A DNA stretch of 64,000 nucleotides from assembly GCF_056712565.1 (NCBI RefSeq), contig NZ_CM160072.1; one strand, written 5' to 3'. The position numbers are program-made. Shown here one piece after another: positions 60,301 to 63,300 of this stretch. Numbering within the stretch: position 1 is the stretch's first letter; every line of letters starts with the position of its first letter.

Positions 60301-63300
60301 TTGCTATTCGCCTCGCAAGAACGGAGAGCCGTCGATTGACACTAAGGGCGGAGTGACATAATTTCAGGAGTGAGGGTAGAGCGGGGTTTCCCCCGCCCTG
60401 GTAGTCTTAGTAAGCTGGCCAGCTAATGACTAAGAGCACCACGATGATGAGTAGCTTCATCATGACCCTTTCCTTATTTAAGGCCCCTTCCTCGGGAGGG
60501 GCTTTCCCGTTTCAGCGTCCCGCTGAAATCTTCGGCTTACCTCCTTTCGCCCTGTATGCAGTCTATCGCTGACTTGCGGATAAAATAGTTTCAAGTGTGA
60601 TTATTGCGTAACGACTCGCAAAGAATATTTGCTGGCAGGATCGCAGACTGCAAAGTCTGCGGATTGACAATTGGACCGTGAAGGCATACTTTCAGGAGTG
60701 AGGGTAGAGCGGGGTTTCCCCCGCCCTGGTAGTCTTAGTATGCTGGGTAGCTAATGACTAAGAGCACCACGATGATGAGTATCTTCATCATGACCCTTTC
60801 CTTATTTAAGGCCCCTTCCTCGGGAGGGGCTTTTCCGTTTCAGCGTCCCGCTGAAATCGTCGGCTTATCTCCTTTCGCCATGCAAGCAGTCTATCGCTAA
60901 CGCGTAGATAAAATAGTTTCATGTGTTATTACTGGATGCGTGCTCGCAAATGTGCCCGTCATTCAGACGATTCCCGACAGTGTTTCATAATTCCTCCATT
61001 TTTCTCCCTTATTGGCTGGCTACACTAGTATCATTCCGCGAAACGTTTCAGGAAGAGAAACTCTTAACGATGAAAGGCAGTTATAAATCCCGTTGGGTAA
61101 TCGTAATCGTGGTGGTTATCGCCGCCATCGCCGCATTCTGGTTCTGGCAAGGCCGCAATGACTCCCAGAGTGCAGCCCCTGGGGCGACGAAACAAGCGCA
61201 GCAATCGCCAGCGGGTGGTCGCCGTGGTATGCGTGCCGGCCCATTAGCTCCGGTTCAGGCGGCGACCGCAGTAGAACAGGCTGTTCCGCGTTACCTCACC
61301 GGGCTTGGCACCATTACCGCCGCTAATACTGTTACGGTGCGCAGCCGCGTGGACGGTCAACTGATGGCGTTACATTTCCAGGAAGGCCAGCAGGTCAAAG
61401 CAGGCGATTTACTGGCAGAAATTGACCCAAGTCAGTTCAAAGTTGCATTAGCACAAGCCCAGGGCCAACTGGCAAAAGATAAAGCCACGCTCGCCAACGC
61501 CCGCCGTGACCTGTCGCGTTATCAACAACTGGCAAAAACCAATCTCGTATCTCGTCAGGAACTGGATGCCCAACAAGCGCTGGTCAGTGAAACCGAAGGT
61601 ACCATTAAGGCTGATGAAGCAAGCGTCGCCAGCGCGCAATTGCAACTCGACTGGAGCCGTATCACCGCACCAGTTGATGGTCGCGTTGGTCTCAAGCAGG
61701 TTGATGTTGGTAACCAAATCTCCAGTGGCGACACCACCGGGATTGTGGTGATCACCCAAACACATCCTATCGATCTGGTCTTTACTCTGCCGGAAAGCGA
61801 TATCGCCACCGTTGTACAGGCGCAAAAAGCCGGAAAACCGCTGGTGGTAGAAGCCTGGGATCGCACCAACTCGAAGAAGTTAAGTGAAGGCACGCTGTTA
61901 AGTCTCGATAACCAAATCGATGCCACTACCGGTACGATTAAAGTGAAAGCTCGCTTTAATAATCAGGATGATGCGCTTTTCCCTAATCAGTTTGTTAACG
62001 CTCGCATGTTAGTCGATACCGAACAAAACGCCGTGGTGATCCCCACCGCCGCACTGCAAATGGGCAACGAAGGCCATTTTGTCTGGGTACTGAATAGCGA
62101 AAACAAAGTCAGCAAACATCTGGTGACACCGGGCATTCAGGACAGTCAGAAAGTGGTGATCCGCGCAGGTATTTCTGCGGGCGATCGCGTAGTGACGGAC
62201 GGCATTGATCGCCTGACCGAAGGGGCGAAAGTGGAAGTGGTGGAAGCCCAGAGCACCACTACTCCGGAAGAGAAAGCCACCAGCCGCGAATACGCGAAAA
62301 AAGGAGCGCGCTCCTGATGCAGGTGTTACCTCCGAGCAGCACAGGCGGCCCGTCGCGCCTGTTTATTATGCGTCCTGTCGCCACCACGCTGCTGATGGTG
62401 GCGATCTTACTCGCCGGGATTATCGGTTATCGCGCCCTGCCCGTTTCGGCACTGCCGGAAGTGGATTATCCGACCATTCAGGTGGTCACGCTCTACCCAG
62501 GTGCAAGCCCGGATGTCATGACCTCTGCCGTTACCGCGCCGCTCGAACGCCAGTTTGGGCAGATGTCCGGCCTGAAACAAATGTCGTCGCAAAGTTCCGG
62601 CGGTGCGTCAGTTATCACTTTACAGTTCCAGCTAACCTTACCGCTGGATGTCGCCGAGCAGGAAGTGCAGGCCGCGATTAACGCTGCCACTAACCTGTTG
62701 CCGAGCGATCTGCCTAACCCGCCGGTTTACAGCAAAGTGAACCCGGCAGATCCGCCGATCATGACGCTCGCCGTCACCTCAACCGCCATGCCGATGACCC
62801 AGGTGGAAGATATGGTGGAAACCCGCGTCGCGCAGAAAATCTCGCAGATTTCCGGCGTAGGGCTGGTCACGCTTTCCGGCGGCCAGCGTCCGGCTGTTCG
62901 CGTCAAACTTAACGCTCAGGCGATTGCCGCCCTCGGTCTGACCAGCGAAACCGTGCGCACCGCTATTACCGGCGCTAACGTTAACTCGGCAAAAGGGAGC
63001 CTCGACGGCCCTTCCCGCGCGGTCACGCTTTCCGCGAACGACCAGATGCAATCCGCCGAAGAGTATCGCCAGCTAATCATCGCCTACCAGAACGGCGCAC
63101 CGATTCGTCTGGGCGATGTCGCAACCGTAGAGCAAGGAGCAGAAAACAGCTGGCTCGGCGCGTGGGCGAACAAAGAACAGGCCATTGTGATGAATGTCCA
63201 GCGCCAGCCCGGTGCTAACATTATCTCCACCGCCGACAGCATCCGGCAGATGCTACCACAGCTCACCGAGAGTCTGCCGAAATCGGTGAAGGTGACGGTA

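Follow-up and report, generated by a model that had tools for sequence, protein, structure and literature searches.

The window, a 64,000-nt stretch of contig NZ_CM160072.1 (assembly GCF_056712565.1), is assigned to Escherichia coli ATCC 11775 and includes a 931-nt intergenic stretch in which the identity is 100% to the sequence of that strain and 94% to K-12 MG1655. The whole intergenic region is shared at ≥99% identity by just 281 records. In the identical ATCC 11775 record, yegI, pphC and yegL on the minus strand are followed by two Ibs-family toxin genes, also on the minus strand, and then by mdtA and mdtB on the plus strand. According to the annotation of that record, mdtA (61070..62317, plus strand) encodes the membrane fusion component of MdtABC, an RND efflux pump, and E. 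coli MdtA clusters match the MdtA of the window at 99% identity. The annotated mdtB (62317..64000, plus strand) is partial and runs past the window end. Window coordinates of SibA, SibB, the ibs genes and mdtA were obtained by mapping the K-12 annotation onto the window.

Two Sib/Ibs units are located in the intergenic stretch. The first comprises the SibA antitoxin sRNA (60372..60508, plus strand, mapped from K-12 sibA), recognized by the Rfam model RF00113 with 141 bits at 60336-60478, and, on the minus strand, an IbsA-like toxin ORF of the Ibs family (60407..60463), which RefSeq annotates in the identical ATCC 11775 record. The second comprises the SibB antitoxin sRNA (60700..60835, plus strand, mapped from K-12 sibB; 138.6 bits to RF00113) and the annotated ibsB toxin ORF (60735..60791, minus strand). 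Both scores lie above the gathering score of 56 for RF00113 (SIB_RNA), and the pairing of each Sib unit with an Ibs-family toxin ORF on the opposite strand identifies both as type I toxin-antitoxin loci. Between ATCC 11775 and K-12, a few percent of the positions in the Sib units differ. On the plus strand, SibB ends in an intrinsic terminator, with a hairpin at 60808-60833, an 11-bp GC-rich stem followed by UUUUCC and a U tract at 60831-60834; the K-12 annotation places the SibB 3' end at the same terminator.

Between this terminator and mdtA, the plus strand reads TTTTTCTCCCTTATTGGC at 60999-61016. This is the BaeR box of mdtA, an 18-mer of the Nishino type, which lies on the same strand as mdtA; the SibB 3' end (60835) is 163 nt upstream of it, and the mdtA ATG (61070) follows 53 nt downstream. 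It matches the BaeR consensus 5'-TTTTTCTCCATDATTGGC-3' (Nishino et al. 2005, as quoted in PMC3799227 and PMC3915751) at 17 of 18 positions, the sole difference being C for A at position 10. The preliminary description had reported the box at these coordinates, with a single mismatch to the consensus and situated between the second Sib/Ibs unit and mdtA, and its sequence, mismatch count and placement were all right. When the 64-kb window was searched for TTTTTCTCCATDATTGGC with up to 3 mismatches, the box was returned alone (0.29 matches expected by chance); it was likewise the only match with up to 1 mismatch, and 0 of 100 shuffled sequences gave any such match. Thus, the box is real and not a product of chance. 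The opposite explanation, a chance resemblance with no regulatory role, could draw on the degenerate 15-base core TTTTTCTCCNNNATTGGC, which has at least 120 matches in species genomes, almost all of them in unrelated taxa among the matches listed. However, a match with up to 1 mismatch is not expected in the window, the box precedes a proven BaeR target at the expected position and in the expected orientation, and it is identical to the site studied in K-12. Genomic context and the K-12 data effectively refute this explanation, which we regard as extremely improbable.

The box is identical to that of K-12 MG1655 at all 18 positions, as is the stretch from the box to the ATG (71/71), and 5279 of 5417 E. 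coli records match the 56-nt core promoter (60985-61040) at 100%. Compared with TTTTTCTCCATDATTGGC, the K-12 BaeR site of spy (TTTTTCTCCATAATTGGC) has 0 mismatches, whereas that of acrD (TTTTTCTCCACGATTGGC) and the mdtA site each have 1. Because the box is identical in K-12 and the consensus averages spy, acrD and mdtA, the single mismatch belongs to the native K-12 mdtA site. Hence, when the box was characterized as well preserved, the count was right but the preservation is not specific to this strain, since the reference site of K-12 already has the mismatch. The boxes of spy, acrD and mdtA are alike in sharing the pattern TTTTT-CTCC-N3-ATTGGC, and those of spy and acrD are each accompanied by a weaker CTCC-like hexamer 11 bp upstream, whereas the mdtA core carries C where the spy and acrD cores have the A of CTCCA. 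Among the matches listed for TTTTTCTCCNNNATTGGC, the one of relevance was the spy promoter of E. albertii. The BaeR site of the K-12 mdtABCD-baeSR promoter is the same 18-mer, with the same flanking genes (sibA/ibsA, sibB/ibsB and mdtA) and no difference in the site. We are highly confident that the box is the already described BaeR operator of the mdtABCD-baeSR promoter and that the strain carries the reference sequence unchanged.

Data on K-12 support the assignment of the box to the mdtABCD promoter, which had also been made in the preliminary description, and add to the 71/71 identity reported above. BaeR ChIP-exo in K-12 identified two peaks upstream of mdtA, at 2153931-2153967 and 2153972-2153998 (PMC7657598). 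Mapped onto the window, the former (peak_5) corresponds to 60985-61021 and covers the box, and the latter (peak_6) corresponds to 61026-61052, that is, to the -10 and start region. In 5% ethanol, mdtA was down by log2 4.0 (16-fold) in the K-12 baeR knockout, as measured by RNA-seq, whereas in unstimulated cells its level was unchanged (log2 +0.07) (PMC7657598); basal mdtA expression is thus BaeR-independent. Reports of BaeR sites in front of spy, mdt-bae, acrD and ycaC are cited in PMC2731931, and reports of BaeR binding sites also in PMC3160322. The summary of earlier work in PMC4107485 presents BaeR as the primary regulator, with CpxR enhancing its effect. A search near mdtA for the CpxR box GTAAA-N5-GTAAA yielded only matches with 2-3 mismatches (5 found versus 6.8 expected).

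At spy, neither of the BaeR ChIP-exo peaks overlaps the spy box, and one of them coincides with a constitutive start of Kim et al. 2012. The peaks at mdtA can therefore be taken as support for occupancy of the promoter and cannot resolve the half-sites described below. For the same reason, peak positions were rejected as an arbiter between these half-sites.

The relationship between the toxin-antitoxin locus and the mdtA promoter was considered in the light of transcription start data and of the orthologous loci. The ibsB start reported by Kim et al. 2012 (PMC3415461) at NC_000913.2 position 2151851, minus strand, corresponds to ~60881 on the minus strand of the window, so that the ibsB and mdtA promoters are divergent, with ~118 nt from this start to the box. 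In the same data set, a 5' end internal to sibA was given to mdtA by default. One Sib unit is found upstream of mdtA in Citrobacter and three ibs copies in one lineage, and the mdtA loci of Klebsiella and E. albertii have no Sib unit upstream. As all of these loci share the same core promoter, the Sib/Ibs adjacency is dispensable for the mdtA promoter. In our reading, the Sib/Ibs units are independent type I toxin-antitoxin modules, and both the terminator of SibB and the divergently oriented promoter of ibsB set them off from the mdtA promoter. A full-text literature search found no publication in which sibB and mdtA were meaningfully discussed together.

Alternatively, read-through from SibB, or a weak constitutive promoter (TTCAGA-18-CATAAT, 60962-60991), might provide a BaeR-independent share of mdtA transcription, in which case the toxin-antitoxin locus would influence the efflux operon. 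Such a share would be consistent with the unchanged level of mdtA in the unstimulated baeR knockout and with the short, interrupted U tract of SibB (UUUUCCGUUU). Moreover, the promoter-like site just upstream of the box matches at 9 of 12 positions, and its CATAAT hexamer is invariant across genera, save for CATATT in some lineages. However, a promoter-like match of this kind is at chance level (1 found versus 1.4 expected), the annotation gives SibB as a discrete RNA of 136 nt whose end is the U tract, and its terminator has the GC-rich stem described above. Furthermore, the data set of Kim et al. 2012 (PMC3415461) contains no plus-strand start near 60998 or 3' of SibB, and Klebsiella and E. 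albertii have the same mdtA promoter without a Sib unit. We consider this alternative improbable, and read-through from SibB into mdtA appears unlikely to be of much importance.

The BaeR box is part of a larger arrangement of direct repeats on the plus strand. Half-site A (TTTCAT, 60983..60988) lies 11 bp upstream of half-site B (CTCCAT, 60994..60999), and half-site C (CTCCCT, 61004..61009) is contained within the box; with periods of 11 and 10 bp, the three repeats are helically phased. The position equivalent to half-site A is occupied by CTCCTT in acrD and by TTTCTT in spy. The acrD site reads CTCCTT-N5-CTCCAC, with an 11-bp period, and spy carries two CTCCAT units at a distance of 22 bp, between which a weak unit lies. 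A CTNCA core that BaeR sites share has been pointed out previously (PMC3799227). Upstream of the repeats, the cross-genus alignment and metagenomic variants described below reveal a conserved block, CAGAC..N..GACAGTG (60963..60982, plus strand), which could be the site of a co-regulator or part of the second, weak promoter at 60962-60991.

Downstream of the repeats, three overlapping candidate -10 hexamers can be read from the sequence of the plus strand, namely, TACACT (61021-61026), TAGTAT (61026-61031) and TATCAT (61029-61034). No -35-like hexamer was found at the proper spacing from these candidates, as expected for an activator-dependent promoter, and transcription of mdtA is predicted to start between ~61033 and ~61041. 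Half-site B is separated from TACACT by 27 nt, which is the same distance as that between CTCCAT and TACACT in spy and between CTCCAC and TACAGT in acrD, and the 27-nt spacing is also retained in the spy promoter of E. albertii. The core of the mdtA box, half-site C, is located 17 nt from TACACT and 25 nt from TATCAT. Thus, in spy and acrD it is the core of the box that lies 27 nt from TACA(C/G)T, whereas in mdtA the core of the box lies at 17 nt and the upstream CTCCAT at 27 nt.

To assess conservation, we aligned the mdtA promoter with its orthologs in E. albertii, four Citrobacter lineages, Klebsiella and two further lineages. Half-site B is invariant in all taxa sampled, as are all 7 columns of the stretch around it in the 8 lineages, and half-site A is invariant or near-invariant across genera, with 8 of 10 columns invariant in GTTTCATAAT, which holds it. 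The -10 block CTA(A/C)ACTAGTATCATT has 13 of 16 invariant columns across the lineages. By contrast, only 5 of the 18 columns of the box are invariant in the 8 lineages, and Klebsiella has TTTTTAAGCGGCGTTCGC in its place. The 18-mer as such was not conserved across genera, being kept in Escherichia and, only in part, in Citrobacter. We further collected 120 metagenomic mdtA promoters, for 84 of which enough downstream DNA was available and the MdtA ORF was seen. In this sample, which was anchored on the flanking invariant blocks and thus selected for intact flanks, a 20-nt interval occurred in 32 distinct versions, and TTTTCTCCC was retained just in those nearest to E. coli. Across Escherichia, Citrobacter, Klebsiella and the metagenomic variants, no part of the promoter is less conserved than the 3' two-thirds of the box.

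From this arrangement we infer how the half-sites are assigned, a class-II-like geometry and the transcription start of the mdtA promoter, and it can be read in two ways. In one, TATCAT would serve as the -10 hexamer and BaeR would bind half-sites B and C, for a normal class-II geometry centred near -40. In the other, the ancestral operator would consist of half-sites A and B with TACACT as the -10 hexamer, and half-site C together with ATTGGC would be an addition of Escherichia and Citrobacter. The latter reading would make TTTCAT-N5-CTCCAT (60983-60999) the primary or ancestral BaeR element and the box an Escherichia/Citrobacter-specific extra half-site within a variable spacer before TACACT. 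It is consistent with the invariance of the half-site B stretch and of GTTTCATAAT as opposed to the box, with the diversity of the 20-nt interval and the confinement of TTTTCTCCC to the metagenomic versions nearest E. coli, and with the position of CTCCAT (60994) 27 nt from TACACT as in spy and acrD, the spacing in E. albertii spy being equal and a weaker hexamer lying 11 nt upstream in all three promoters.

Several observations argue for a role of the box itself. A 17/18 match to the consensus that includes ATTGGC cannot be due to chance, and the box is fixed in E. coli. In the frame of TATCAT, the proximal core lies 25 nt from the -10 hexamer, close to the 27 nt of acrD and spy, and half-sites B and C would then have the normal class-II geometry. 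Furthermore, the TACACT of spy is probably not the main -10 hexamer of that promoter, given that TTGACG-16-TAATCT, further downstream and under ChIP-exo peak_1, is the better promoter. The metagenomic promoters, for their part, were chosen for intact flanks. Taken together, we hold the assignment of the primary element to half-sites A and B as tentative. The broader proposition, that the textbook mdtA BaeR box is a lineage-specific add-on and that the ancestral operator of Enterobacteriaceae is TTTCAT-N5-CTCCAT located 27 nt from TACA(C/G)T, appears doubtful to us; if true, the published 18-mer consensus would align mdtA with a shift of one helical turn relative to the other members of the regulon.

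Regulators of the OmpR/PhoB family usually bind as dimers to direct repeats, and AdeR recognizes a site of the direct-repeat type. At the pho-box promoters activated by PhoB, activation is class-II-like, with the operator replacing the -35 hexamer. The mdtA promoter would resemble these in having tandem direct repeats at the putative -35 position and a candidate -10 hexamer but no -35 hexamer, and differs from them in the sequence of the half-site, while its register to the transcription start is a predicted one. A closer likeness in half-site sequence is offered by DzrR, which is set beside BaeR in the paper that describes it and of which AdeR is the best-characterized homolog (PMC10052836). 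The DzrR footprint lies on a pair of CTCCAT direct repeats with an 11-bp spacing (PMC10052836), and the DzrR box thus shares with mdtA the CTCCAT half-site, the ~11-bp direct repeat and the location upstream of an RND efflux operon. However, DzrR is a different regulator from different bacteria and appears to be phosphorylation-independent, and the mdtA repeats (TTTCAT / CTCCAT / CTCCCT) are less perfect than those of the DzrR box. Both the repeat array of mdtA and the DzrR footprint fit the usual OmpR/PhoB mode.

Under envelope stress, the kinase BaeS phosphorylates BaeR, a regulator of the OmpR/PhoB family. In the model that we propose for the mdtA promoter, phosphorylated BaeR would bind the helically phased CTCC-type direct repeats A (60983-60988), B (60994-60999) and C (61004-61009), of which the 18-mer would form the promoter-proximal part. 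The array would occupy the place of the -35 hexamer, no good match to which exists there, and the bound regulator would bring RNA polymerase with sigma-70 to the weak -10 region (61021-61034). This would induce the whole operon, of which baeSR is itself a part.

BaeSR control of MdtABC adds to the intrinsic tolerance of E. coli to bile salts, novobiocin, flavonoids, metals and some beta-lactams, which makes the mdtA promoter of practical interest. Because the site has already been described and its sequence is unchanged, the box in this strain adds nothing to the K-12 annotation. What would go beyond the textbook account is a modest refinement suggested by the promoter comparison, namely, that the 18-mer is the least conserved element, whereas the upstream CTCCAT tandem is invariant and seems to be in register with spy and acrD. 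The conserved upstream element could be used to refine the BaeR motif for prediction of the regulon in other Enterobacteriaceae, in which a search for the E. coli 18-mer would overlook the promoter of mdtA, as in the case of Klebsiella.

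A perfect 10-bp palindrome, GAAACGTTTC, is located at positions 61041-61050 of the window, where it coincides with the predicted start of mdtA transcription or follows it immediately. The palindrome is preserved in Escherichia, Citrobacter and Klebsiella, as judged from cross-genus comparison, and is covered in K-12 by the stronger BaeR ChIP-exo peak at mdtA, peak_6 (PMC7657598). This palindrome could serve as an operator or as a 5'-UTR element. Farther upstream, preceding the BaeR half-sites of mdtA, we identified a CAGAC-N7-GACAGTG block (60963-60982), which different genera have in common and the majority of the metagenomic variants retain. 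The block is overlapped by a sigma-70-like site, TTCAGA-18-CATAAT (60962-60991; 9/12 matches), and could be either a co-regulator site or a second, weak promoter.

A sequence similar to TTCATAATTCCTCCA of mdtA (window 60984-60998) was detected upstream of spy in K-12, where TTCATAATCTCTGCA (locus L004, genome positions 1825845-1825831) lies under BaeR ChIP-exo peak_2 (PMC7657598) and coincides with the start site 1825840 reported by Kim et al. 2012 (PMC3415461). The Nishino box of spy is located outside both K-12 BaeR ChIP-exo peaks at this gene.

Among the 5' ends listed by Kim et al. 2012, one within sibA (NC_000913.2 position 2151394, 207 reads) is credited to mdtA, with a 646-nt 5' UTR (PMC3415461, supplementary file 2). 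We rejected such a long mdtA leader as an artefact that arises when each 5' end is paired with whichever gene follows most closely.

The orthologous loci L126-L133 and the E. coli matches H13 and H27-H29 differ in how many Sib/Ibs units they carry upstream of mdtA. Two units precede mdtA in the window (ATCC 11775) and in K-12. Citrobacter and some E. coli have a single unit, whereas locus L131 (GCA_014105655.1, labelled Klebsiella pneumoniae) and some E. coli have three. Klebsiella and an E. albertii contig lack such units; the E. albertii contig carries a phage-integrase fragment upstream of mdtA instead. In L131, an mdtA promoter of the E. coli type is preceded by a pphC-like gene and by ibs in three copies, but the encoded MdtA is only 87% identical to that of E. 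coli; this looks like either a doubtful species label or a recombinant locus.

In ATCC 11775, yegI immediately adjoins pphC (yegK), in the order yegL-pphC-yegI on the minus strand (window 58772-60189), whereas in the K-12 record the neighbour of pphC is yegJ, on the opposite strand. Thus, the gene content upstream of this kinase/phosphatase/vWA cluster is not the same in the two strains.
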